A stretch of DNA of 21,237 nucleotides from Promethearchaeota archaeon (GCA_048937405.1 JBHLNF010000010.1:1-21237); one strand, 5' to 3'; counted from the first letter of the stretch, positions 2,881-21,237 are shown. Numbers and translations are program-made. The notes: generated from the letters alone by a model not told the origin.

Positions 2881-3327
2881 GTGAAGGAGCTTTACGAATT
2901 AGGTTTTGTTTTCCGTGGATTTGTTCTTGTCAATCATATATTTAAAGCAGTACCAGTTCAAAAAGGAAGTAGAGTAAATAAGGACCTTAGAGGAGCATTT
3001 ATCTCTGCTATTAATACATTTGTAGATCAAGCTTTCAATAAAAGTTCGTTGGAATATTTAGAATCAGGAAATATCTTATTTATCTTTAAAGTATCTGAAA
3101 TTCAATCAGAAGATAATTTCATGAAGGAACCAATAATTTTATATGGTTTAGTTGATAAAGCGAAAAAGAAATCTGATAAACTTGTAAGAAAATTTTTCGA
3201 GCGTGTAGATCCCGTTTTACAACTCTTTATTCAGAAATATAATTTAAAAGATTTTACTGAATTAAATCAATTTGAAGACTTTAAAGACATAATGGAAGGT
3301 TTTTTCATAAAAAAAACTCAGATTTAA
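2881..3327 (+). CDS. Stand-alone longin-like domain protein
   Basis: 148 aa with a beta-beta-alpha-beta-beta-beta-alpha-alpha pattern: GFVLVNHIF, DLRGAFISAINTF helix, LEYLESGNILFIF, IILYGLVD, then C-terminal helices. Fold assigned by eye. Confidence 0.65.
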   Translation: MKELYELGFVFRGFVLVNHIFKAVPVQKGSRVNKDLRGAFISAINTFVDQAFNKSSLEYLESGNILFIFKVSEIQSEDNFMKEPIILYGLVDKAKKKSDKLVRKFFERVDPVLQLFIQKYNLKDFTELNQFEDFKDIMEGFFIKKTQI

Positions 3328-5001
3328 TTATTCGCTTAAACACCACCCTTTCGGATTAGTACGAGAATAAACTATTCTTTTTTGGTCTTTTAATAATGCA
3401 ATTTCTTTTTCAATTTGAGTATCAGAGAATCCGCTTGCTTTAATATCATTAACAAATTGAGCTTTTGAGGGGACTACCTTTTTTTCTTTTAGATATGACA
3501 GAATTATTTCCTCCAAAGATTTTCCAGCAGTCGCTTTTTCTTCAGAAACTGGTTTATTAACATCACTTTCAAGAGCCGCTCGCAATCTCTCTTTTTTTGG
3601 TTCAACAGGTTTTTCAATTACTAATGGTTGTACCTTAGGTTTTGATTGCTTCTCTACCACAACTTCTGATTTAACTTGTTCAGGCATTTCCTTTGAAATT
3701 TCTTCTTCAGGTAAACTCCAAACTGGATATGAAACCTTTTCATAAGTAACTGATTTTTGTGTTTTAAGAAGTGCAAATTCATCTAATATTTCATCCTCAG
3801 AATATCCTAGATCTATCAAATCTTTCATTAATTCCTTTAAATGACCTTTTTCTTGTAAAATAGTAAAAATATGCTCTCTTATATTTGAAGGGATGTTCTT
3901 AATTTTTATGATTTCTGCAATTAAATCTTCTTTTTTACTTTCTTGAATTTCAGGTATTTTAATTTCTTGGGGGATATCTAATGATTCTTTCTGTCCCCAT
4001 TCAAAATCTGTTACATTTCGAATTGTACGATCATATCCTCCAAATATAATCTGCTTTAAATTTTGTTCTTTTTCTATACAGTAGCATACTTTTTTAATTG
4101 AAGTTGACACTTTAGTCTTCCATTTCAATTCAAAATCCTGAGAATTCAATGAAGTATTATGGAATATTTTTAATGACCCATCAGCACATCCAACAACAAT
4201 TTCTTTTGCGTTATCACCATCAATATCTTCTATTAATAATGAGAGAGGACGACCCTCATCAGTTTCTATCTCTTTTAAAATATCTCCTTCACTGTTTAAA
4301 ATTTTAATATAAGGATCATCAGTACTTACAATAATTTCATTAAAGCCATCATTTGTGACATCTCCAACTTTAATATCATTAACTTTAGCACCAAAATCTT
4401 TCTGCCAAATAATATCTATCATATTATTTTGAAAATGTATTAGTTGAACTAAACCATTTCTAGTGCCAATCAATAATCCATTTATTGGATCTTCCATATC
4501 TGGCAATTTTAAGAAACTTAGTGTGCAAGTAGTAACCCAAGAATCATAATAAAGAATAAATTTTGGCTTTTTAGCCTTAATATCATCAAAAATTCTAAGG
4601 GACTTATCTTCACTCCCAAAAATTAGTTCAATATTTCCATTTCGGGTGAAATCTCCCGCGGTGCAGCAATTAATCCTCTTAGAAGCTTTATATCGCATTA
4701 ATCCAACTAATTTCTTATTTTCTATATTTATTTTCATGACCATGAAATTTCCATCACCAGCTCCAACTAATATCTCATCACAGCCATCTCCATCAATATC
4801 AACCGGAAATGTACATCGACACCACCCATCAAAAGCTCGATCATCTACAATGTTCATTGTATCATCCATTAAATAAAGAGTTTTATCGTGTCCGCCAAAT
4901 GCTAAAAAATTAGTGCCATTTTTACATTTTAAAATTGAACATGTTAACACCGCTTCCGGACATTCAAACATCCAATTTAATTGATAACGTTTTCGTATCA
5001 T
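3328..5001 (-). CDS. 7-bladed FG-GAP/WD40-like beta-propeller (BBS2/BBS7/ITFG2-like blades) with two C-terminal winged-helix-like repeats
   Basis: Seven blade cores: FGGHDKTLYL, VGAGDGNFMV, FGSEDKSLRI, IGTRNGLVQL, VSTDDPYIKI, VGCADGSLKI, FGGYDRTIRN. DxDGDG-type loops precede four blades. No signal peptide. Confidence 0.75.
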   Translation of the reverse strand: MIRKRYQLNWMFECPEAVLTCSILKCKNGTNFLAFGGHDKTLYLMDDTMNIVDDRAFDGWCRCTFPVDIDGDGCDEILVGAGDGNFMVMKINIENKKLVGLMRYKASKRINCCTAGDFTRNGNIELIFGSEDKSLRIFDDIKAKKPKFILYYDSWVTTCTLSFLKLPDMEDPINGLLIGTRNGLVQLIHFQNNMIDIIWQKDFGAKVNDIKVGDVTNDGFNEIIVSTDDPYIKILNSEGDILKEIETDEGRPLSLLIEDIDGDNAKEIVVGCADGSLKIFHNTSLNSQDFELKWKTKVSTSIKKVCYCIEKEQNLKQIIFGGYDRTIRNVTDFEWGQKESLDIPQEIKIPEIQESKKEDLIAEIIKIKNIPSNIREHIFTILQEKGHLKELMKDLIDLGYSEDEILDEFALLKTQKSVTYEKVSYPVWSLPEEEISKEMPEQVKSEVVVEKQSKPKVQPLVIEKPVEPKKERLRAALESDVNKPVSEEKATAGKSLEEIILSYLKEKKVVPSKAQFVNDIKASGFSDTQIEKEIALLKDQKRIVYSRTNPKGWCLSE

Positions 5002-5116
5002 TTTTTCTCAAGATTATTTATGATTATAGAAAATAATAACAGTAGATAAAATAAATTTCATTCTTTATTCATTTAATACTTATTATCATAAGCTTATTAA
5101 ACTATTACTGTAACAT

Positions 5117-5141
5117 AAAAAAAAATAAAAAAATAAAAAAA
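5117..5141 (-). terminator. Oligo-T tracts, likely archaeal intrinsic terminator of the 714-aa gene
   Basis: Three consecutive A runs on + (T runs on -) starting about 12 nt after the stop at 5154. Confidence 0.55.
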
Positions 5142-5153
5142 TACTTTTTAAAT

Positions 5154-7298
5154 TTAAAGGGCTAATTGGGCATCAGATGGACTATATGCTCCTGTACCGG
5201 TTATCTCATATGTGATTTCTAAGCTTTCTCCTGCTTCTAAGACTTCAATATCCCATCTTAATGTATCTTGTCCCACTTCATCAGTAATTTCAGGAGTTGT
5301 TGAATAATTACCATACTCAAATGAATCAGGAACTTTATCAAGTAGAACAAGGTTAGTTAATTTAGATTCACCAATGTTTTCAATTGTTAATAGAATTCTG
5401 TAATTTCCAAGATCCCCAAATGCTTGTACTTCTTTTCCAATTCTGAATTTTCGTCTGATGTGCATTGCCTCGATTACTGGAACTTCTGGTTTGAATTCCA
5501 ACTCTTGACTTACTGGAAAAGTATTTGCAAGATATGTAATTTCAGAATCAAAAGTGGATTCACGCGCTGGATTTACACAATGAATAGGATATTCAAATTC
5601 CATTGTAGATTCTGGCATAAACATACCATTACTACTATCTTTTAAATCAGTAAGATCAATTTTGAATACATTGTTCTCAACACTGACAGCAGCTGCAGAT
5701 ACTTCCACTTCCTCTCCGTCCCATATTAATTTTATCTCATCTGCTTTTGGTGGCTGATATTCATCTGAGAAAGTTTCTTGTATAACGGATACCTCGTTTA
5801 AGGGTGCTGAACCATTATTAACAATCTTAAGTTTAGCCATAACATCTTTGGTTCTAAAAGTAGGAACTTCTGTTATATCATATGACATTACACCAGTTAT
5901 ACTACCAATTTCTAAGATAACATCTGAAAGAACAGCGGTCCCATTTACAATTGTTTGAAAATCAGGCATTACTCTAAATTCTAATTTCTTCCTAAATGTA
6001 GGATATTCATCACTTTCATATTCCCATTTTCTTGAGTGCCATTGAGCTCCACTTGGTAAAAGAGGAACATCATTTGGATCAATATCTACAAATTTTTTCG
6101 ATTCATCTTCGGGAGCGTATACATCAGCATTGAATAATTGAATAATAAATTCTGAGGAATTATCAAAAACAAGCTTGCAATCAAACATACCTGGTTCTTC
6201 ATCTCTTTCAACTGTATCCACATAAAACTTATTTCTGGTATATGCATCAAATTTACCAATATCTAAACCTTCAGCAAAAGAAGAGGCACTTTGGTATGTA
6301 ATTTCTATTGTTCCTGTTCGTCTTTTAGTAATATCTGTAACCATGATGTTGCATGTAAATTTTAACATTACTGTGTATTCAGGAGCTAACTTATCAATTG
6401 TCCAAACTATTTGAGTTCCTTCGATATTGGCGCTTCCTTCAGTTGTATCTACAATCCGAGGATTTGTAAAATCATTTGGGATATTTTTTATTACTTTAAT
6501 ATTAGAAACTGGTTTATCAAACATGCTTCTAAGTACTATAGCAAAGTGAACAAGATTATCCTTGTCTATGGATATTCCAAAAGACTCCAACCCTTCTTGA
6601 GTAAGCGTTCCACCATCTCCCCATGTTTCACCTTCATCCTCATCTTCTTCTTCTTCCTCTTCTTCAACTTTGGGTTTTTCATTATTAGGTTTTGAGGAGA
6701 CTCCACTTTTTTTATCCTTTAATTTTAATAACTCTTTTTCAATATCATTTATGTTTAAAACATCATCTGCATTTGGGTTCGTATTAATAAATTCTTTAAC
6801 AAGAAATAGATTTTTTATATCCTTCTTAATTTTAAAATTTCTAGAGTCAACATTCTCAGGTTCTTCAGTACCCAATTCTCTTATTGAAATATCTTTTGTT
6901 TTTAAATCAGTGCTTCCAATATTTTCAAGTGAAACATCAATATCCCATAATCTGTCTACTGTACTTGGATTTTCAATATTAAATTTACCACTATGAGTAA
7001 AAGATTCTACCTTTGCATAATGATCTTGTTTTACATCTACTTCTTCTATTATTTTCACTAATGCTAATAATCCTTCTCTGTTGCCGTCTTTTAAGACAAT
7101 GCTTCCCTCTAATTCCCCTGTATCCTTATCGTATGTCTCTATGACAGGAGTCGATGTGTCTCGATCAATTAATTCAACACGACCTGTGTCCATGTCTTTT
7201 CTCTTTAAAGCATCTGCAATAAGTTCTTCATCAGCCTCTGACCTATCAAAGCCCATTCGCGATCTTGTCTCAGTCTTTTTCTTATCTTTTCTAGCCAT
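5154..7298 (-). CDS. Large acidic all-beta protein: candidate mu-homology-like region plus Ig-like (DUF11/appendage-like) domains
   Basis: 714 aa, no signal peptide or TM segment. Repeated Ig-like motifs (LKIVNNGSAPLNEVSV; LTIENIGESKLTNLVLLDKVP...LRWDIEVLEAGES). Poly-Glu loop at aa 212-224. The CDS is secure; the functional call is tentative. Confidence 0.55.
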   Translation of the reverse strand: MARKDKKKTETRSRMGFDRSEADEELIADALKRKDMDTGRVELIDRDTSTPVIETYDKDTGELEGSIVLKDGNREGLLALVKIIEEVDVKQDHYAKVESFTHSGKFNIENPSTVDRLWDIDVSLENIGSTDLKTKDISIRELGTEEPENVDSRNFKIKKDIKNLFLVKEFINTNPNADDVLNINDIEKELLKLKDKKSGVSSKPNNEKPKVEEEEEEEDEDEGETWGDGGTLTQEGLESFGISIDKDNLVHFAIVLRSMFDKPVSNIKVIKNIPNDFTNPRIVDTTEGSANIEGTQIVWTIDKLAPEYTVMLKFTCNIMVTDITKRRTGTIEITYQSASSFAEGLDIGKFDAYTRNKFYVDTVERDEEPGMFDCKLVFDNSSEFIIQLFNADVYAPEDESKKFVDIDPNDVPLLPSGAQWHSRKWEYESDEYPTFRKKLEFRVMPDFQTIVNGTAVLSDVILEIGSITGVMSYDITEVPTFRTKDVMAKLKIVNNGSAPLNEVSVIQETFSDEYQPPKADEIKLIWDGEEVEVSAAAVSVENNVFKIDLTDLKDSSNGMFMPESTMEFEYPIHCVNPARESTFDSEITYLANTFPVSQELEFKPEVPVIEAMHIRRKFRIGKEVQAFGDLGNYRILLTIENIGESKLTNLVLLDKVPDSFEYGNYSTTPEITDEVGQDTLRWDIEVLEAGESLEITYEITGTGAYSPSDAQLAL

Positions 7299-7454
7299 TA
7301 GTTTTTACCTAGTCTTTATACTATATTAAATTGAATTTTATTTACCAATTAATATAATTTAATTGATAAAATAAAATTATCATCAAAATATAAAAAATTT
7401 TTTAATTTAAGGTAAAAAGAGTTATTTTGAATATAGAGAGAGTTTAATTAAGTG

Positions 7455-7622
7455 CTAAAAACCATTTTCCTTAAGATCTTTGGAAGAAAAAAATCGCTTT
7501 CCAGAATCTTTAAATTTATAACCGCACATTGGGCATTCAATATTTAAATTACTTTCTTTAATATCAAATTGAAAGCTAAAACCACATACAGGACAGTTAA
7601 TTACATCACTTTTTTTAATCAT
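7455..7622 (-). CDS. 55-aa zinc-ribbon protein (CPVC...CPMC)
   Basis: Absent from the ORF track. Manual translation: MIKKSDVINCPVCGFSFQFDIKESNLNIECPMCGYKFKDSGKRFFSSKDLKENGF*. AAAGGA lies upstream; directly downstream of and co-oriented with glycerate kinase. Confidence 0.8.
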   Translation of the reverse strand: MIKKSDVINCPVCGFSFQFDIKESNLNIECPMCGYKFKDSGKRFFSSKDLKENGF

Positions 7623-7649
7623 AATAATAAATCCTTTTAATAAGTGAAT

Positions 7650-9071
7650 TCATTTTGAAAGGAGAATCAAAACTAAATCATTAACATTACATCCTGTTGA
7701 ACCAGTTATTAATTCAATTCCTAATTGTTTGAAAAACGCATTTGAGTCATTATTTTCTAAAAGATTCTCTGAATTAATATTCATTGAAAGCATTTTATCT
7801 AAAATAAAATTATCAACAATAGCTCCCATTGCTTTACTATTTCCTTCAATACCATCAAGATTGGCACCCATAACTAAAAAGTTATAATTAATATTTTTAT
7901 TTTTTATAAAATTAAGAAAGCTTAAAAGCATCTCTTGGTTTCTCCCGCCAATGCCATTCCCTTTAATAGTAACAGTTAACTCGCCTGTTGCCATTAAAAT
8001 TATGTTTTTATATTTATTTTGATCAAAATTTTCTTTTACATATTGGGAAATAATCCAATAAAGAGATTTTCCAAATTCCTTAGCTTCACCAGTTATAGTA
8101 TTAGAAAAGTAATCGATTTTATATTCAGGTTTACGAGAAAGAGTTATAAGTTCTTGGACAGCGAAACTAATACTTCCAATCAAATAATTATGAATGTCCT
8201 TAAAATATATGCTATTAGATTTTGGATTTTCTAATGTATTATCTTTTAATCCTTTCTCTATATGATCCTTAACAGAATCAGGAAATTTCTCCCAGAGTTT
8301 ATATTTATTACTTATTGTTAAAACATCTTTAAAAGTGCTTTTATCAGGTATTGTAGGACCAGATGCAATTGAATCTAAATTATCTCCAACAACATCTGAT
8401 ATGATTAAACAAATTAATGTAGCTCTACTTGAATTATAAAGATTTTTTACTAAATTTCCACCTTTAAAATCAGATAAATGCTTTCTAATGACATTAATCT
8501 CATGAATAGATGCTCCCGAAGATAAGAGTAAAGAGTTGACTTTTTGTAAATCTTCAATTTTTATTCCTTTTTTTGGCAATGGAAGTAATGCGGAACCTCC
8601 TCCAGAGATTAAACAAAAAAAAAGATCTTCTTCATTAGATTTTTCTATTTTTTCCATCATTAATTTGGTTCCATTAAAACCAATTGCATTTGGAATTGGA
8701 TGGGATGCATGGTTAAAGATAATTTTACTTTTTTTTAGCTTTTTATGTTTATATGCACTTTCAGGAACGTTAATAATTCCCTCATAGTTAGTATAATTCA
8801 ATTTTATCAGAATTCTCTCAAGTTCTAATGCCATTTCAGCCGTTGCCTTACCACCGCCAATAATATAGACTTTTTTATATTTATGCAAATCATACTCATT
8901 GTTTAAAATGTTTAATTTCCCTTTTTGGATTATGATTGATTTCTTCATCAGATATTTAGGTTTTACAAGTTGAATTATTCGCTCAAGAATTTGAAGCCCT
9001 ATTTTCCTTAACCTAAATTGATCTTTATTTAAATCCATATGAAGAAGTTGAGAAGTATTCTTTACAAACAA
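7650..9071 (-). CDS. gck: Glycerate 2-kinase (MOFRL/TtuD family)
   Basis: GGGKA, ASHPIP, LISGGGSAL, GASIHEINVIRKHLSDFKGG, SDVVGD...IASGPT, GELTV, GGRNQE, DGIEG, TGCNVND. Confidence 0.93.
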   Translation of the reverse strand: MFVKNTSQLLHMDLNKDQFRLRKIGLQILERIIQLVKPKYLMKKSIIIQKGKLNILNNEYDLHKYKKVYIIGGGKATAEMALELERILIKLNYTNYEGIINVPESAYKHKKLKKSKIIFNHASHPIPNAIGFNGTKLMMEKIEKSNEEDLFFCLISGGGSALLPLPKKGIKIEDLQKVNSLLLSSGASIHEINVIRKHLSDFKGGNLVKNLYNSSRATLICLIISDVVGDNLDSIASGPTIPDKSTFKDVLTISNKYKLWEKFPDSVKDHIEKGLKDNTLENPKSNSIYFKDIHNYLIGSISFAVQELITLSRKPEYKIDYFSNTITGEAKEFGKSLYWIISQYVKENFDQNKYKNIILMATGELTVTIKGNGIGGRNQEMLLSFLNFIKNKNINYNFLVMGANLDGIEGNSKAMGAIVDNFILDKMLSMNINSENLLENNDSNAFFKQLGIELITGSTGCNVNDLVLILLSK

Positions 9072-9270
9072 AATAGCACTTCAATATTTGTCAATTTAAC
9101 GTATAAGATATTATTGGAAATATCATTAACATTAAATTATGTTCAGTATGATATAAATAAATTATTGCTTTTCATGAACTTTAAATATAACTAGTTTTAC
9201 TAAATACTTGATTTGAAAACGTTACTTTAAATCATTGTTTATGAATCAATCAATAAATCTTATATGAACT

Positions 9271-10626
9271 ATGCTAAGACAAGTATTCATTCTTAATGGG
9301 AATGAGATTATATATAAAAGAGTTTATGGAAATGCTTTAAGTAATTCAGAGATTGAGGACCTTAGTTTTAAAATTATCTCAGAAGCAAAAAGAGCTCTTG
9401 GAAGAACTACAGGGTATTTTGATTTTATTAAGTATAGAATATCTTATGACATTGATCTAAAATCTATGCTATCCTTTATTTTTATAACAGGATTAATGGA
9501 TGATTTTTACAGATCAATTAAACTTCAACTAAACAATTTTAAAAAACTATTTTTAAATCGTTTTGGTGACAATATCAAGGATAATAATCTAAAAATGTCA
9601 AATTTTGTTGGGATAAATATAGCTCTTGATGAAATGCATAGAAATTTAAAACCTAAAATTGCGGTTGTAGGTTTTGCGGGAGTTGGTAAAACAACCATAA
9701 AACAATTAATAAAAATGGATGAAATACCACTTCAGCATGTTCCAACTATTACTGGTGAAATTGCAACTATCAAAATTGGTAAATTATTTTTTCGATTATT
9801 TGATTTTGCAGGACAGGAACAATTTAAATTTCTTTGGAAAGGATTTATTAAAGAAAGTGATGCTGTTCTTATAGTTACCGATTCGACTCAAAAAAATATA
9901 GAAAAGAGTAAATTCTTTTTAGAATTAAAAGTAAAAGAAGTTCCCCACTCTCGAGCAGCTATAATAGGAAATAAGCAAGATTTACCTGATGCTTTAAGTA
10001 TTGCAGAAATAGAGGAGATTACAGGTTTAAAGACTTATCCAATGGTAGCTAATAGAAAAGAGAATCGTAATAAAATGATTAGAGTTATTGCTGATATTTT
10101 AGATATGAGTACAGAAGACTCTCCATTATTATCTGAACTATTTGAGAATACTGATTTAAGTTATGAAACTTTATTTGGATTAAGTGAAGAATCAGTTGAG
10201 GATGAATCCTTAATCATTCCAGAAGAACCATTTTCGTTAGAAGAACTTCAAGTTGAGCAAAAATTCGAAGTTAACGAGATAAAAAATAAGATAGATCAAA
10301 TAATTTCAAAAAGCTCTGGGGATGAATCAGGTCATCTTGAGGAAAATAAGAAATATATCCATAGTCTTAAAATGCCTGTTGAAAATGCCTTAATTACTTC
10401 TGAATTATTTAATGAATTTGAACAAAATAAATCATTTGGATATTATGATAAATTAAGTATTTTATTCACTGCCCTTAATTGTGTCTTTCTAACAAAAATG
10501 GAACCAAAAAAGTACCCAAAATTCAGTGCTTTTTTTAAAGATTATAAAATGCATATGTTTAACTCTAAAGAAATTAACCTAATTCGAAAATTTTACTCAA
10601 AAGTCTTAAAACAAGTTACCGCTTAA
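9271..10626 (+). CDS. Arf-like small GTPase with N-terminal longin-like domain and C-terminal extension
   Basis: G1 GFAGVGKTT, G2 VPTI, G3 DFAGQ, LWxxF, G4 GNKQDLPDAL. aa 1-125 longin-like; about 170-aa acidic/helical tail. Confidence 0.85.
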   Translation: MLRQVFILNGNEIIYKRVYGNALSNSEIEDLSFKIISEAKRALGRTTGYFDFIKYRISYDIDLKSMLSFIFITGLMDDFYRSIKLQLNNFKKLFLNRFGDNIKDNNLKMSNFVGINIALDEMHRNLKPKIAVVGFAGVGKTTIKQLIKMDEIPLQHVPTITGEIATIKIGKLFFRLFDFAGQEQFKFLWKGFIKESDAVLIVTDSTQKNIEKSKFFLELKVKEVPHSRAAIIGNKQDLPDALSIAEIEEITGLKTYPMVANRKENRNKMIRVIADILDMSTEDSPLLSELFENTDLSYETLFGLSEESVEDESLIIPEEPFSLEELQVEQKFEVNEIKNKIDQIISKSSGDESGHLEENKKYIHSLKMPVENALITSELFNEFEQNKSFGYYDKLSILFTALNCVFLTKMEPKKYPKFSAFFKDYKMHMFNSKEINLIRKFYSKVLKQVTA

Positions 10627-12843: not shown

Positions 12844-13113
12844 TTATTCTGCTAAACAACAAAATATAACATTATCCCCACGTACAACTATATTTCCGAG
12901 GTCTTCACGCTCCTCGCGAATATTACCCTCATCATCTTGAAATTCAAAGAGTTGACTTGTACCTTCAAGATAAAGGTTTAGATGCTCATCGAAACCAGCC
13001 AAGATTCCTCTAAATAGTCTATTACGCTTAACCTTAATTAAAATTACCTTATTTATTGAAGACTTCAAATAATCGATAGGACGGTTAGATCTGGAATAAC
13101 TTTCACGTGACAT
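12844..13113 (-). CDS. Sm/Lsm-family RNA-binding protein (SmAP)
   Basis: RPIDYL, Sm1 motif (FRGILAGFDEHLNLYL), Sm2 motif (VVRGDNVIF). Start taken at ATG 13113 (MSRES) rather than TTG 13143. Confidence 0.92.
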   Translation of the reverse strand: MSRESYSRSNRPIDYLKSSINKVILIKVKRNRLFRGILAGFDEHLNLYLEGTSQLFEFQDDEGNIREEREDLGNIVVRGDNVIFCCLAE

Positions 13114-13346
13114 TATTAATATCTCAAAAAAACAATTATTCAAAAAAATATTTATAGTAACAAGTAAATACCATTTAAATTAAAACCTTTCTATAGTTTT
13201 TATAGGAATGTATACATTTAAACCTACAAAAAATCCAATGATAAAATTGTAAAATGACTAAAAAGATGAAATTAAAATAATATTATATTCATTTTACTTT
13301 TTATTATATTATGAATTGTTTTATTATACAAAAATATATTAGTATT

Positions 13347-14361: not shown

Positions 14362-16341
14362 ATGATCTTTATCATGAAAGAAGCATATGTAACCGACTTA
14401 TCATCTTTAAAGGTGAGGGTAAGACCAAGATTACCCATGATCCTACGGAGGATAAGTAAGTTCTTATTGCGATATGGGATTGTTCCCTTAGTAAAGATAA
14501 TAGGTAAGTTCTTAGGATTTGGATTTGGTAAGAATGGAGTAAAAAAGTATCCAGAATATTTCATTAGATTGAAAGATGGAACAAAATTAGCAACAGATAT
14601 ATATGTTCCAAAAAATGTTTTTAAGAAAAAAAGTAAATGTCCCACAATCTTAATTAGATTACCCTATTGGAAAGATAACTGGAGTTTTATAGGATATGCT
14701 TATTCTATTTATGGATTTGTAACAATCATTCAAGACATTAGAGGAACTGGTCATTCCACAGGTTTTAACTATTATTTATTTACCGAAAGAAATGATGGAT
14801 TAGAAACGTTAGAGTGGATTTCCAAGCAATATTGGTATAATGGCAAAATAGGTATGGCAGGGGCAAGTTATTTTGGCATAACTCAGCTTGCTTTATCTTG
14901 GGATAACAAGCATTTATCTTGTATCTCTCCTGCTATTACCTCTACATTGAATCTATGGATTAATAATGGGGGTTTACAAATACACGCTCTTACAACTTCT
15001 ATTTATAGGATAATGGTTAATATAGCATCACACACTGATGCACCTGAAGTAGATACGCTAACAGATCTAATGCAAGAAAGATATTTGAACCCAAAATATG
15101 CTTTATATAATGATCCGATTAAAAAAGAAAGTGATCTTAAATTATCTCAGTTAAAAGGAAAATCTGTTAAAGAAATCCAGGATTTATTAGCTTCATTTTA
15201 TAAAATAAAAAATTTTGACGGTTCTAAGCGAAATCTTAAAATTTATTTTGAATTTCTAAACGATTTCTTAATAACACGTAATCTAGATAAAGATACATAT
15301 AAAATGTCTGGACTATTAGAAATGGATTTAACAAAAGTTTCACAACCCATTTTCATGTTAGCTGGTTGGCAAGATATGTTTTTTGAACAACAATTAAAGG
15401 ATTTCTTGGAAATTAAAGAGAATGCTATGGGAAATGCAAAAAAGTATTCAAAATTACTCATCGGACCATGGGCTCATGCAGCAGTAGGACATCCTGATAG
15501 CAAGATTAGTAATGCCGGGTTATTACGTTTTTATAAAGAATTTATAAATCTTAATTGGAACCGATATTGGCTAAAAGATGAATAATATGCATTCTTAGAT
15601 ATCAAAAAACCTTCTATTAGGTATTGGGTTATGGGAAAAAATATTTGGAGATATACTGAGAAATGGCCACCGAACAATGTCGAATATAAAGAACTATATT
15701 TACATTCTATCAAAGGCGCAAATAGTATAAAAGGAGATGGATTTTTAAATTTCGACCAACCATTTAAAGAAACGGAAGATTCATATAATTTTGATCCACT
15801 GAATCCAGTAATCACAAAGGGGGGAAGAAATTTAGGGATTATAAAAGGAGCTCGAAATCAAAAAGAGAGTGAAAAAAGAAAAGATGTTTTGGTTTACTCT
15901 ACTAAATTTTTAAAAGAAGGATTAGAAATAACTGGTCCTGTTAAGATGATACTTTATGCTTCTTCATCAACGAAAGATACTGACTTCATGATCAAACTGG
16001 TGGATGTAAATAGAGGAGGAAAAGCTATAAATATCTTAGATGCTGGGATACGAGCTAGATTTAGAAATGGTGAAAATAATGTCTCTCTTATTGAACCAAA
16101 CAAAGTCTATGAATATCATATAGAATTAGGGAATACTTCAAATTTCTTTAAGATAGGACATAAAATACGTATTGAAATAACATCAAGTAATTTTCCACGA
16201 TTTGATATTAACTCAAATTTAGGAGGAGAAGGTCGAACGGGAGAATATGTTATTGCTGAACAAAAGATATATCACACTCAGGAATATCCAAGTCATCTTA
16301 AACTTCCAGTCATAAATGAGAAAAAAATATCGCATCAATAA
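14362..16341 (+). pseudogene. CocE/NonD family serine hydrolase interrupted by one in-frame TAA (15583-15585)
   Basis: RLPY, QDIRGTGHSTG, GASY nucleophile, GWQD and GPWAH in part 1; PepX_C-like part 2 (WPP, EITGPV, DTDFMIKLVDV, SSNFPRFDIN). Both parts share a frame: WLKDE*YAFLDIKKPSIRYWVMGKNIWR. Confidence 0.8.
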
Positions 16342-19082: not shown

Positions 19083-19333
19083 CTCTCATTTTATTTTAAA
19101 TTATAATTAATTCATTTCTTTTTTACTTATTTGTATATTATTTAATTAAAGATTTTAACTCCACAATATTGAAATTTAACACAAATTTATCCCGTTTTTT
19201 CAAGATGTTAAAAATTGTGCGTGATATCGCAACAAAAATTATTCTCTGCTTATATAATATTAAGTAAAGCCTAAAATATTTTTATTGATATTATCAAATA
19301 AATCAGAGATCATTTGTGAGTGATTTAATAATA

Positions 19334-21237
19334 ATGACATTAACAGAAAAGAAACTTCAGGAATCTGAAGAAAAATATCGAAATTTATTTGAGAAGTCTT
19401 CAAATGCGATAGTGTTGCTTGATATTACTGGAAAAATTATAGAATGCAATTCCGCTACTGAGAGTGTATTTGGATATTCTGTTGAGGAACTAATTGGTAA
19501 AAATTACTTAGAATTACCTTATTATTCAAAAAGAATGTTGAATACGTTAATAAAGAGATCTCAAGCAATATCAAAAAAGCTTGATTTGGAACCACAAGAA
19601 TTGGAGGTTAAAAAAAAAGATGGGAATATAGCAACGATTAGAACTATTATATCCTATATAAAACTAGGAAATCAAGATTTTTTTCAAGTTATAATTCAAG
19701 ATATAACCGAACAGAAAAATGCTGAACAAAAATTAAAAGAATCTGAAACTAAGTTTAGATCAATACTCGAAGCAATTCCAGACATATATTTTCTACTCTC
19801 TAAAGACTCCACAGTATTAGAATATCGAGGGAAAAGAGAAGATTTATATCTTGAACCCGAAGAATTTATGGGAAAAAAATTAATTGATATCTTACCATCT
19901 GATCTAGGAAAGAAGACATTGGAATTTGTAAAGAAAACTATAACAACAAAGCAACCTCATAGTTTCGAATATGAATTACCCATAAAAAATGAAATACATT
20001 ATTATGAGGCAAGATATTTTTATCTTTCAGAAGAAAGAATCTCTTGTTTTGTTCGAGATATTACTGAAAGAAAAAAAGCAGAAAAAGAAATTTATAATTT
20101 AGCAAAATTCCCTTCAGAAGATCCAAATCCCATAATGAGAGTTAATAATGAAAAATTACTTTATATTAATCAATCTGGTAAAAATTTATTTAATATCATC
20201 GAAGGTGGTAAGATACCGAAGCAATTCAAAAAAATCTTAAAGCAAGTATTAATGGAAAATATTATAAAAAAATTGGAAATTGAAATTATGGGTAAAAATT
20301 ACTCATTTGCCCTAATACCGATAAAACAAGAGAATTATGTTAATATATATGGTCAGGAAATAACAAAAAGAAAAAAGTTTGAGAATGAATTATTAATAGA
20401 AAAGAAATTTTCTGATGATTTGATTAACACGTCAATTGACACTATTTTTGTTTTTAATCCACAAACTGGAAAAGCAATTCGTTGGAATAAGGCATTTAAC
20501 GAAATTAGTGGATACACAGATGAAGAAATATCTTCAATGAAAGCACCCGATTCTTACTATAGGAAGGAAGATTTAATACGGGCAGCACAGGCTACTAAAG
20601 AGGTAACAAAAGAGGGTTCTACAAAAGTCGAAATGTCATTAATTACTAAAGGTGGTGAAAAGATCCCTTTTGAATATAGTGGAACATTAATGCAAGATAC
20701 CGAAGGTAATACCTTAATTATGTCCATAGGGAGGGATATAACGGAACGAAAAAAATTCGAAATGGAGTTGAAAGAATCTGAAGAAAAATTTAGAACTATC
20801 GCAGAACACTCCCTAGTTGGGATTTCGATAATACAGGATGGAATAATAAAATATTTTAATAAAACACTTACTGAGATAGATGGATATACTGAAGAAGATG
20901 TAAAAAGTTGGAAACCTAATGAGTTCCAAAAAGTATTTCATCCTGAAGATCGGGAATTTGTAATGGAACAAGCCCGAAAAAAACAAAGAGGTGATCCAGA
21001 TGTTATTCCTCAATATCAATATAGAATAACACGAAAAGATGGGAAAATTAGATGGATTGAGATTTTCTCAAAAACGGTAACTTATAAAGGTCGTCCAGCA
21101 GATCTCGCAATGACTCATGATATAACAGACAAGGTCAATGCTGAACGGCTAATAAAGGACTCCGAAGAAAAATTTTCTAAAGCATTCAATTCTAACGCAT
21201 TAGCAATGTGTATAACTACTTTTAAAGAAGGTATAGT
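19334..21237 (+). CDS. Multi-PAS domain sensor protein (probably a histidine kinase), truncated by the window end
   Basis: Not in ORF track (no stop in window). Open from ATG 19334: MTLTEKKLQESEEKYRNLFEKSSNAIVLLD... Five PAS/PAC units ending QDITEQK, RDITERK, QEITKRK, RDITERK, HDITDK, plus the start of a sixth. Output domain not visible. Confidence 0.9.
   Translation, partial: MTLTEKKLQESEEKYRNLFEKSSNAIVLLDITGKIIECNSATESVFGYSVEELIGKNYLELPYYSKRMLNTLIKRSQAISKKLDLEPQELEVKKKDGNIATIRTIISYIKLGNQDFFQVIIQDITEQKNAEQKLKESETKFRSILEAIPDIYFLLSKDSTVLEYRGKREDLYLEPEEFMGKKLIDILPSDLGKKTLEFVKKTITTKQPHSFEYELPIKNEIHYYEARYFYLSEERISCFVRDITERKKAEKEIYNLAKFPSEDPNPIMRVNNEKLLYINQSGKNLFNIIEGGKIPKQFKKILKQVLMENIIKKLEIEIMGKNYSFALIPIKQENYVNIYGQEITKRKKFENELLIEKKFSDDLINTSIDTIFVFNPQTGKAIRWNKAFNEISGYTDEEISSMKAPDSYYRKEDLIRAAQATKEVTKEGSTKVEMSLITKGGEKIPFEYSGTLMQDTEGNTLIMSIGRDITERKKFEMELKESEEKFRTIAEHSLVGISIIQDGIIKYFNKTLTEIDGYTEEDVKSWKPNEFQKVFHPEDREFVMEQARKKQRGDPDVIPQYQYRITRKDGKIRWIEIFSKTVTYKGRPADLAMTHDITDKVNAERLIKDSEEKFSKAFNSNALAMCITTFKEGI

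Follow-up and report, generated by a model that had tools for sequence, protein, structure and literature searches.

The full two-subdomain mu-homology domain (MHD) fold is found in the mu subunits of AP-1 to AP-4, in delta-COP and in the muniscins (FCHo, SGIP1). In the BBSome, BBS2, BBS7 and BBS9 each unite a β-propeller and an adaptin-ear-type sandwich, and ITFG2, a KICSTOR subunit, also has a propeller. For the question of how the eukaryotic vesicle adaptors (AP complexes, COPI, TSET and the BBSome) arose, reports from Asgard archaea have to date provided mainly scattered homologous domains that are not fused to one another. Among the Pfam domains listed in Asgard proteins by Eme et al. (2023; Nature 618:992, PMC10307638) is PF00928, the same domain as considered here, which is given there as detected ‘although not fused’ to other AP domains and as ‘sparsely distributed’. 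The ESP catalogue to which a preprint refers (10.64898/2026.10.28.762692) already contains a BBS7/ITFG2-type Asgard–eukaryote structural cluster, and Asgard Arf-like GTPases with extra domains have also been described (e.g. Nat Commun 2025, PMC11914678).

Proteins with these folds are encoded close together in a 21,237-nucleotide stretch of DNA from the Lokiarchaeia genome of a Promethearchaeota archaeon (GCA_048937405.1 JBHLNF010000010.1:1-21237), hereafter called the window (Table 1). A preliminary description of this DNA had noted three adjacent genes followed, beyond a glycerate-kinase-type gene, by a GTPase gene, and all of these ORFs were confirmed. A zinc-ribbon ORF lying between the kinase gene and the 714-residue gene is absent from that description. 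We consider it probable that the locus holds a zinc-ribbon/MHD/propeller cassette, the two large proteins of which would form a heterodimer acting as a soluble adaptor or scaffold, and that it is not a four-gene coat locus.

Table 1. Positions, counted from the first nucleotide of the window, of the genes and protein regions discussed in the text
Feature	Position	Strand	Remarks
Longin-domain protein P0001, 148 aa	2881-3327	(+)	Convergent with the propeller gene; stop codons abut
Propeller protein P0002, 557 aa	3328-5001	(-)	Pfam and atlas neighbours
T-rich tract directly 3′ of the MHD gene stop codon	~5117-5142	(-)	Read from sequence
MHD protein P0003, 714 aa	5154-7298	(-)	AF2 model and structural alignment
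Predicted propeller-binding loop region, F660-E-Y-G ... P669-E-I-T-D-E-V-G676, last Ig-like domain	5271-5321	(-)	
MHD proper, both β-sandwich subdomains, aa ~40-462	5913-7181	(-)	
Acidic (poly-Glu) insert in the MHD, aa ~195-240	~6579-6716	(-)	
Zinc-ribbon ORF, 55 aa, CPVCG...CPMCG	7455-7622	(-)	Directly upstream of the MHD gene
Glycerate-kinase-type protein, 473 aa, DUF4147 + MOFRL	7650-9071	(-)	Housekeeping neighbour flanking the cassette
Arf-type GTPase P0004, 451 aa	9271-10626	(+)	Pfam Arf 5.3e-21, 75.3 bits

Folds of the encoded proteins

The MHD protein starts with a disordered, lysine-rich (polybasic) stretch (residues 1-35) bearing a conserved MGW/F-D motif. The MHD that follows is split by the poly-Glu insert, a disordered segment of about 45 residues, and is itself followed by two more Ig-like domains (residues ~465-610 and ~630-705), the last of which matches Pfam DUF11 (residues 631-700), and by a conserved C-terminal tail ending in PSDAQLAL. 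The protein is strongly acidic overall (143 D+E versus 81 K+R). Its AF2 model, obtained without templates from an alignment of Lokiarchaeial sequences only, has a pLDDT of 79.6. A VIA comparison aligned AP-2 mu2 with this model at a Z of 18.9 and an rmsd of 3.5 Å over 224 of 245 residues (mu2 169-435 on model residues 75-459). The top-50 VIA entries are all MHDs (AP-1 to AP-4 mu, delta-COP, SGIP1 and FCHo1), with Z values of 14.5-18.9. The alignments with mu2, delta-COP (Z 16.2) and SGIP1 (Z 14.8) cover about 215-228 residues at an rmsd of 3.1-3.8 Å. As modelled, the 714-residue protein thus carries a complete two-subdomain MHD. No fused longin domain precedes it, the MHD starting at about residue 40 directly after the disordered stretch.

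The sequence similarity of the archaeal family to the MHDs of AP mu, delta-COP and the muniscins is weak but consistent. PF00928 gave no reported match in the window's own protein, even at E ≤ 10, but scores 33.4-34.5 bits in the orthologs P0022, P0078 and P0115 (gathering threshold 31.6 bits) and 25-28 bits in other orthologs, and it is matched at E ≤ 1e-3 by 28 of 62 diverse family members (best 1.9e-10). The top matches of the family profile, searched against 177,635 PDB sequences, are AP-2 mu (0.0016) and AP-3 mu (0.011), and its C-terminal domain weakly matches the gamma-adaptin ear (E 0.015). Like its eukaryotic counterparts, the archaeal protein is cytoplasmic. It differs from AP mu and delta-COP by its missing longin fusion, its poly-Glu insert and its two extra Ig-like domains; moreover, its predicted partner is a propeller bound through these C-terminal domains, and the window holds no adaptin-type gene. 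In MHD relatives across the phylum the same two halves are joined without the acidic insert.

In its C-terminal half, the MHD region is matched by DUF11 as well, and matches from giant DUF11-repeat proteins recur there, up to 38 times at positions ~210-290 of the family profile. DUF11 matches occur in 58 of the 62 family members and overlap the PF00928-matched region, so that the sequence signal in this half is common with a generic prokaryotic Ig-like domain. These counts would fit a generic tandem Ig/DUF11 protein, its MHD likeness being convergent and the pair with the propeller an integrin-like propeller-plus-Ig module for adhesion or at the surface; multi-Ig adhesins and integrin alpha chains are likewise among the Foldseek matches. 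However, the multi-Ig matches have a TM of 0.1-0.2 and an rmsd of about 40 Å, whereas mu2 and other MHDs reach a TM (normalised by target) of 0.6-0.75, and the Z values above hold over the whole two-subdomain unit. The best PDB matches of the family profile are mu subunits, and no anchor is present. Indeed, as the preliminary description had stated for signal peptides, none of the four proteins has a signal peptide, a hydrophobic N-terminus or a membrane-span-like stretch (maximum Kyte-Doolittle 19-residue mean ≤1.38). We regard a convergent surface module as very unlikely. The structural matches of the locus are to MHDs and longins and not solely to generic DUF11/FG-GAP surface proteins.

The N-terminal part of the propeller protein (residues 1 to ~345, bases 3967-5001) is a β-propeller of the BBS2/BBS7/ITFG2/FG-GAP type. 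Its Pfam matches include Beta-prop_BBS7 (5.6e-19, 69 bits, cut-off 27) and BBS2_Mid (45.8 bits, cut-off 27), and its atlas feature neighbours are the BBS2, BBS7 and ITFG2 clusters. Itfg2, FG-GAP_3 and a propeller family of carrageenases likewise score above threshold; given the last two, the BBS-type match, and with it the likeness to the BBSome subunits and ITFG2, holds at the superfamily level. In contrast to the BBS subunits, the archaeal protein lacks the GAE (adaptin-ear-like), platform and coiled-coil/helical parts, in place of which residues ~362-557 (bases 3331-3918) form two winged-helix-like repeats of about 65 residues with a charged linker between them. This C-terminus gives weak winged-helix-type matches only (MCM5_C, HTH_24, Rrf2 and histone H5), none of them significant.

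The AF2 model of the longin protein (pLDDT 79.7) has the topology β-β-α-β-β-β-α-α (DSSP E4-11, E14-20, H36-51, E59-62, E65-74, E83-92, H98-120 and H134-144). It aligns over its full length, at an rmsd of about 3 Å, with the longin domains of TRAPPC4/synbindin, AP sigma and the mu N-terminus, VAMP7, SRX and Mon1-Ccz1. VIA gave Z values of 10-11.6 to many longins over residues 3-148, led by synbindin (11.6; rmsd 3.1 Å, 121 residues aligned), the AP-2 mu N-terminus (11.1) and VAMP7 (11.0), compared with just 6.8-8.3 for roadblock domains. As longins within one Z unit are tied, the protein is not assignable to the sigma/mu type; it has no Pfam match.

The GTPase consists of an N-terminal domain (residues 1 to ~118), a G domain (residues 123-259), an acidic linker and a helical C-terminal domain. 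Like those of other Asgard Arf-like GTPases with extra domains, its G domain is of the Arf type (Pfam cut-off 22.3 bits; in the PDB, E 1.8e-17 to Arf1 and about 1e-17 to Arf2). The P-loop (residues 134-141) is preceded by about 120 residues of a separate domain, which replaces the N-terminal amphipathic (myristoylated) helix, absent directly before the G domain, and the C-terminal extension is about 190 residues long. That the N-terminal domain might be longin-like is suggested by a weak feature lead (0.76), namely to SRX in the alpha subunit of the SRP receptor. Of the preliminary fold labels, those of longin, BBS-type propeller, MHD and Arf-type core therefore stood, the longin label of the GTPase N-terminus being reduced to this lead.

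Gene neighbourhood and spread of the families

In 74 of 76 species loci the MHD gene is directly followed by the propeller gene in the same orientation, and in 63 of 69 the glycerate-kinase gene lies directly upstream of the MHD gene. Every sampled genus of family f1 that has the pair keeps the order glyK, MHD gene, propeller gene, even as propeller identity across the genera falls to 40%, and in the sister family f2 the MHD and propeller genes are adjacent too, in a rearranged orientation. In genus g10 of this sister family (loci L013 and L017) the propeller is without its C-terminal repeats and the pairing with the MHD gene is kept. Among the sampled loci, the pairing is seen in only one order of Lokiarchaeia. 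In the window, the T-tract, which the preliminary description had placed at 5117-5141 as a terminator, is indeed present directly after the MHD gene and is likely to be an archaeal terminator or attenuator; an AT-rich spacer of 110 bp follows before the propeller gene. The two genes may thus be transcribed separately, and their co-transcription is uncertain.

At least 43 of 80 species loci have a zinc-ribbon ORF in the same orientation as the MHD gene and 100-300 bp upstream of it, and no match to this ORF was found in the loci of the sister genera g2 and g3, which lack the MHD-propeller pair. We take the ORF as a candidate for the cassette's third member, and the unit gained or lost together appears, from these gene neighbourhoods, to be the zinc-ribbon gene (55 aa), the MHD gene and the propeller gene. 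In g2 and g3 the pair is missing as a block and the longin gene sits directly beside the glycerate kinase gene; its retention there means that its adjacency to the pair carries no information. Of 69 loci, 10 have the GTPase gene, and these belong to some of the species of a single genus; its slot is filled by another gene in genus g4 and in locus L004. The longin and GTPase genes thus appear to be independent of the MHD-propeller pair. Each genome has several longin paralogs, of which some lie next to GTPase genes; since orthologs or paralogs of the longin gene are found in g3 in divergent orientation beside small GTPase genes, the longin family more plausibly partners small GTPases.

The preliminary description had tentatively assembled the longin, MHD and propeller proteins and the longin-Arf GTPase into a membrane-trafficking complex of separate polypeptides, a proto-coat or adaptor. 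In such a complex the GTPase would recruit, the MHD would select cargo tails and the propeller would be a coat-like scaffold. The locus does encode all four eukaryote-like folds, in cytoplasmic proteins, longin and MHD together make up the domain content of mu and delta-COP, the weak gamma-adaptin ear match (0.015) recalls the propeller plus ear-type sandwich of BBS2/BBS7/BBS9, and an interface between the MHD protein and the propeller is predicted with confidence (see below). However, the expected synteny held only for the MHD and propeller genes, which alone travel together; the longin gene is unchanged where the pair is absent, and unrelated genes occupy the GTPase slot outside the 10 loci. 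No adaptin, HEAT or solenoid large-subunit gene and no membrane-binding element were found within the window, and the strongly acidic MHD protein has no recognisable lipid-binding patch. The restriction of the pairing to one order, the longin relatives beside small GTPase genes and an MHD paralog inside a che operon also argue against such a complex, which we judge unlikely. The adjacency of the eukaryote-like longin and Arf-like GTPase genes here is no evidence of a common complex.

Using the Lokiarchaeial profile, the MHD family was found across the phylum, in 239 of 301 genomes. The paralog just mentioned lies within a conserved che operon, with CheA on one side and CheC/CheW on the other, a position that would favour a general cytoplasmic scaffold role over a vesicle coat. 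If the archaeal MHD family is such a scaffold, as this paralog suggests, then the eukaryotic adaptor role would be a later specialisation. Relative to the domain listing of PMC10307638, the present data add the confirmation of the fold, this spread (239/301), the pairing with the propeller, the interface predicted for it and the paralog in the che operon.

Predicted interface and possible roles of the pair

The complex prediction for the MHD protein and the propeller gave an ipSAE of 0.83, compared with 0.00 for the best of three controls, which is the confident interface that the preliminary description had asked of its proteins. Of 80 solved complexes, 58 reach the mark used, as do 2 of 110 mismatched pairs; these counts apply only roughly to the custom-built alignments used here. 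Three prediction runs agree in at least 97% of contacts, with a partner pLDDT of at least 89. The two proteins are therefore predicted to bind each other, although this pass could partly reflect a likeness to integrin-type FG-GAP propellers, which have a top-face partner in solved structures.

In the prediction, the MHD protein makes contact by its last two Ig-like domains, and the MHD itself is left free. The core of the contact is the FEYG plus PEITDEVG loop (residues 660-676), to which residues 524-557 and 700-702 are added; on the propeller side it involves the top face, including the invariant W60, G82, R251, W294 and Y323, and the propeller N-terminus. On the propeller, the interface residues show a higher conservation than the remaining ones (0.70 versus 0.61, permutation p about 0.01). 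Those of the MHD protein are on average not more conserved than the rest of their domains (0.72 versus 0.71, p 0.44); conservation is 0.72-1.0 for residues in the FEYG/PEITDEVG loop, and this motif is confined to the MHD subfamily linked to a propeller gene.

In the proposed heterodimer, the loop of the last Ig-like (DUF11) domain and the domain containing residues 524-557 would dock on the propeller top face, and the MHD would stay exposed. It could then serve as a platform for short motifs or partner proteins, as in eukaryotic mu, delta-COP and the muniscins, and the complex as a soluble adaptor or scaffold joining a client to whatever the winged-helix-like repeats bind. We may wonder whether this is a nucleic acid, the repeats and the zinc-ribbon protein binding DNA or RNA in a regulatory complex with the propeller and the MHD as sensor or scaffold. 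The repeat pattern and its weak matches, the conserved zinc-ribbon ORF and the polybasic N-terminus of the MHD protein are consistent with this, but no winged-helix match is significant and the g10 propeller is paired without the repeats. Winged-helix domains, moreover, also mediate protein-protein contacts, as in ESCRT-II. A nucleic-acid-linked role is in our opinion possible but doubtful.

A more specific form of the soluble adaptor would be a true archaeal cargo adaptor, in which the free MHD would bind tail motifs of membrane proteins and the propeller, on its ear-like Ig domain, would be a BBSome- or coat-like scaffold. We see this as a long shot. If true, the cassette would be a surviving relative of parts later fused into eukaryotic adaptor and BBSome subunits, namely propeller with ear-type sandwich and longin with MHD. 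The system is testable, as it offers a high-confidence archaeal MHD, a conserved gene partner of the BBS/ITFG2 type and named residues in a predicted interface. The sister family also has orthologous pairs, and one of its genomes is complete and on a single contig.

Gene neighbourhood of the MHD–propeller pair

Reading of the ORFs in the window, which is archaeal DNA with a GC content of about 29%, recovered the four genes that the preliminary description had named, encoding a longin-like protein, a β-propeller protein, a protein with a mu-homology domain (MHD; PF00928 fold) and an Arf-like GTPase. The T-tract that it had reported 3′ of the MHD gene is real in the sequence, and it was right about the lack of signal peptides: all four proteins lack a hydrophobic N-terminus and any stretch resembling a membrane span.

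Coordinates of features in the window and in loci fetched for comparison (L numbers)
Feature	Location	Strand	Length	Pfam matches or content
Longin protein	2881-3327	+	148 aa	No match in Pfam search
Propeller protein	3328-5001	-	557 aa	Beta-prop_BBS7 (5.6e-19), BBS2_Mid, FG-GAP_3, Itfg2
MHD protein	5154-7298	-	714 aa	DUF11 only (residues 631-700)
Zinc-ribbon ORF, unannotated	7455-7622	-	55 aa	CPVCG...CPMCG
glyK	7650-9071	-	473 aa	DUF4147 + MOFRL, glycerate-kinase type
GTPase	9271-10626	+	451 aa	Arf (5.3e-21, residues 123-259)
LSm-domain protein	12844-13143	-	99 aa	
X-Pro dipeptidyl-peptidase, first ORF	14362-15585	+	407 aa	S15 catalytic part
X-Pro dipeptidyl-peptidase, second ORF	15631-16341	+	236 aa	PepX_C domain
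Multi-PAS sensor protein	19316-21235	+		
che operon, same genome, contig C16	L020:2648-14749	-		orf272, CheW, CheY, CheA, MHD675, orf291, CheC-CheW fusion, orf183, CheB, CheD, CheC
Longin–GTPase neighbours, genus g3	L040:1492-2564; L041:1492-2512; L043:274-1905			
Lactamase_B_3–MHD loci	L021-L024, L033, L034, L037			

Gene linkage was followed in 16 fetched loci and 80 further species loci. Among the 16, every pair-bearing genus of the lokiarchaeal family f1 shows glyK, the MHD gene and the propeller gene in this order, with a convergent longin gene behind the last. In its sister family f2 the MHD and propeller genes still adjoin, but are convergent, and no longin was detected at the f2 loci among the 16 fetched. 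In 74 of 76 species loci the MHD gene is immediately followed by the propeller gene on its own strand; the longin gene comes next after the propeller gene in 63 of 72, and glyK lies 5′ of the MHD gene in 63 of 69. Only ten of 69 loci, all from close relatives, hold a relative of the GTPase; in other genera its slot is taken by a dihydrolipoyl-dehydrogenase-like gene or another ORF.

The decisive test of longin membership is the comparison with genera g2 and g3, two f1 genera without the pair, in which the longin ortholog (E 1e-42 to 1e-51) abuts glyK with nothing between. The MHD–propeller pair is thus an insertion/deletion cassette and the longin gene a fixed neighbour. The zinc-ribbon ORF, between glyK and the MHD gene in the window, precedes that gene by 100–300 bp in at least 43 of 80 loci and is absent from loci without the pair, and therefore probably belongs to the cassette. 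The observations of the preliminary description are confirmed, and its interpretation is supported in part, for the folds and for the MHD–propeller pair, but not for a single four-gene neighbourhood, since the longin gene keeps its place independently of the pair and the GTPase is rarely there.

The MHD protein and its predicted interface with the propeller

A template-free AF2 model of the MHD protein, built from an alignment of 18 orthologs (A1), is all-β (pLDDT 79.6) and disordered at residues 1–32, 199–234 and 615–627. Foldseek matched it to AP-2 mu2 C-terminal domains with TM scores (normalised by target) of 0.6–0.75; multi-Ig adhesins gave a nominal alignment, with TM scores of 0.1–0.2 and an r.m.s.d. 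of about 40 Å. With VIA-align, mu2 169–435 superposes on residues 75–459 of the model with a Z of 18.9 and an r.m.s.d. of 3.5 Å over 224 of 245 residues, and MHDs fill the top 50 entries (AP-1 to AP-4 mu, delta-COP, SGIP1 and FCHo1). The sequence evidence agrees with the structural evidence, but is weaker: orthologs score 33.4–34.5 bits against PF00928 (threshold 31.6) over residues ~250–365, the domain is matched in 28 of 62 diverse family members (best 1.9e-10), and the best matches of a broad family profile among PDB sequences are AP-2 mu (0.0016) and AP-3 mu (0.011), the mu matches of profiles restricted to Lokiarchaeia being non-significant (E 0.5–1.5). Together, the fold and sequence matches delimit an MHD at residues ~40–462, which a poly-Glu insert interrupts and two Ig-like domains follow. 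This poly-Glu/Lys-Pro insert (residues 195–240; A1 columns 280–330) varies strongly in length and composition among species and is missing from the MHD protein of the sister family; its pattern in the alignment points to a fast-changing, repeat-driven linker.

The nearest feature neighbours of the propeller protein are the BBS2, BBS7 and ITFG2 clusters. Its C-terminal ~200 residues form two repeats with weak winged-helix-type matches only, none of them significant against the PDB and Pfam. Full-length orthologs occur in family f1 alone (64 of 68 genomes); f2 has versions that are more distantly related.

The preliminary description had proposed a complex of separate polypeptides, and for the MHD–propeller pair complex prediction gave a confident interface. 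Residues 60–714 of the MHD protein and 1–345 of the propeller protein, each with its own alignment, scored 0.83, compared with 0.00 for the best of three controls. In the benchmark for this score, 58 of 80 solved complexes and two of 110 mismatched pairs came up to the mark, counts that serve only as a rough guide because our own alignments were supplied; a resemblance to FG-GAP propeller complexes of known structure could also raise the score. The runs share at least 97% of contacts, with a partner pLDDT of at least 89. The predicted interface lies outside the MHD, in the two C-terminal Ig-like domains (residues 524–557, 661–663, 670–676 and 700–702), and on the propeller side involves loops of every blade on the top face, together with the first eight residues; the residues contacted in the model include His38, Gly59, Trp60, Gly82, Asp228, Arg251, Ala273, Trp294 and Tyr323, among others. 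Propeller residues at this interface are more conserved than the remaining ones (0.70 versus 0.61, p ~0.01). On the MHD-protein side the 661–676 loop alone stands out in conservation, and its motif is restricted to the subfamily whose genes are linked to a propeller gene. The prediction lends support to a putative interaction between the two proteins. We favour, as the reading that is somewhat the better bet, a soluble heterodimer acting as a scaffold, with an MHD that would be free to bind a client. A membrane coat or adaptor in the true sense, as the proto-coat proposal had it, is conceivable but unsupported, and we consider it improbable.

MHD relatives across Asgard archaea and earlier records

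Searched with a profile of the MHD region (A3), 239 of 301 Asgard genomes, and 64 of 70 genera, have relatives; these are typically proteins of 590–730 aa in which the MHD at the N-terminus is uninterrupted and Ig-like domains come after it. A 1.84-billion representative library yielded 638 proteins at E ≤ 1e-3, the best 150 of these 638 all having E < 1e-24. Giant DUF11-repeat proteins each give many matches to profile positions ~210–290, which relates the second sandwich of the archaeal MHD to DUF11 domains.

None of 18 MHD paralog loci from other Asgard families has a propeller, longin or GTPase gene as a neighbour, and seven loci of other families that surround a propeller relative have no MHD gene within ~8 kb. 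The only recurrent neighbour at the 18 loci (seven of them) is a metallo-β-lactamase-fold gene (Lactamase_B_3; 229–267 aa), which in four further Asgard families stands directly 5′ of the ~600-aa MHD form on the same strand. Moreover, the genome of the window encodes a 675-aa MHD paralog inside a complete che operon. This order, MHD paralog included, is kept in four other genomes from three genera (loci L134–L137), with MHD identity down to 42%, and the paralog may act as an adaptor in an archaeal array or switch.

Longins and Arf-like GTPases are familiar from Asgard archaea. The Pfam domain of the MHD was recorded in Asgard proteins by Eme et al. (2023; Nature 618:992), who describe it as sparsely distributed and unfused to the other AP domains. 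Given earlier Asgard records of each, none of the four folds is new for these archaea. A BBS7/ITFG2-type Asgard–eukaryote cluster is already in the current ESP catalogue, as cited by a preprint (10.64898/2026.10.28.762692). The searchable literature returned no paper joining Asgard with mu-homology, Adap_comp_sub or PF00928, and in it we found neither structural confirmation of the MHD nor the family's near-universal spread, the conserved MHD–propeller(–zinc-ribbon) cassette, the specific predicted interface or the che-operon paralog.

The longin protein, the GTPase and other window genes

The model of the 148-aa protein (pLDDT 79.7) has the longin strand–helix order. Scanned without bias against 48,161 PDB chains, it matches synbindin best (Z 11.6, r.m.s.d. 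3.1 Å, 121 residues aligned) and then other longins (AP-2 mu N-terminus, Z 11.1; VAMP7, Z 11.0; SRX, sedlin and Mon1–Ccz1), with roadblock domains below them (Z 6.8–8.3). By its predicted fold the protein is a longin, as first described, but these matches do not assign it to the sigma/mu type. Its profile gave chance-level matches only among PDB sequences, no relative near the MHD paralogs, and nothing against the GTPase N-terminus (hhalign, probability 0.2). Genomes of g2 have seven to eight paralogs of this family. In g3 the ortholog and one paralog are each divergent from an adjoining small Arf/Ras-like GTPase gene, which points to the usual longin–GTPase partnership rather than to the MHD. 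The GTPase of the window has an Arf-type core (Arf1, E 1.8e-17); the top feature similarity of its N-terminal domain is to SRX (0.76), which makes a longin nature only a lead.

Finally, the window also encodes an LSm-domain protein and a multi-PAS sensor protein that runs past its end, both unrelated to the cassette, and an X-Pro dipeptidyl-peptidase in two adjoining ORFs, 45 bases apart, the result of a natural split or of a frameshift.
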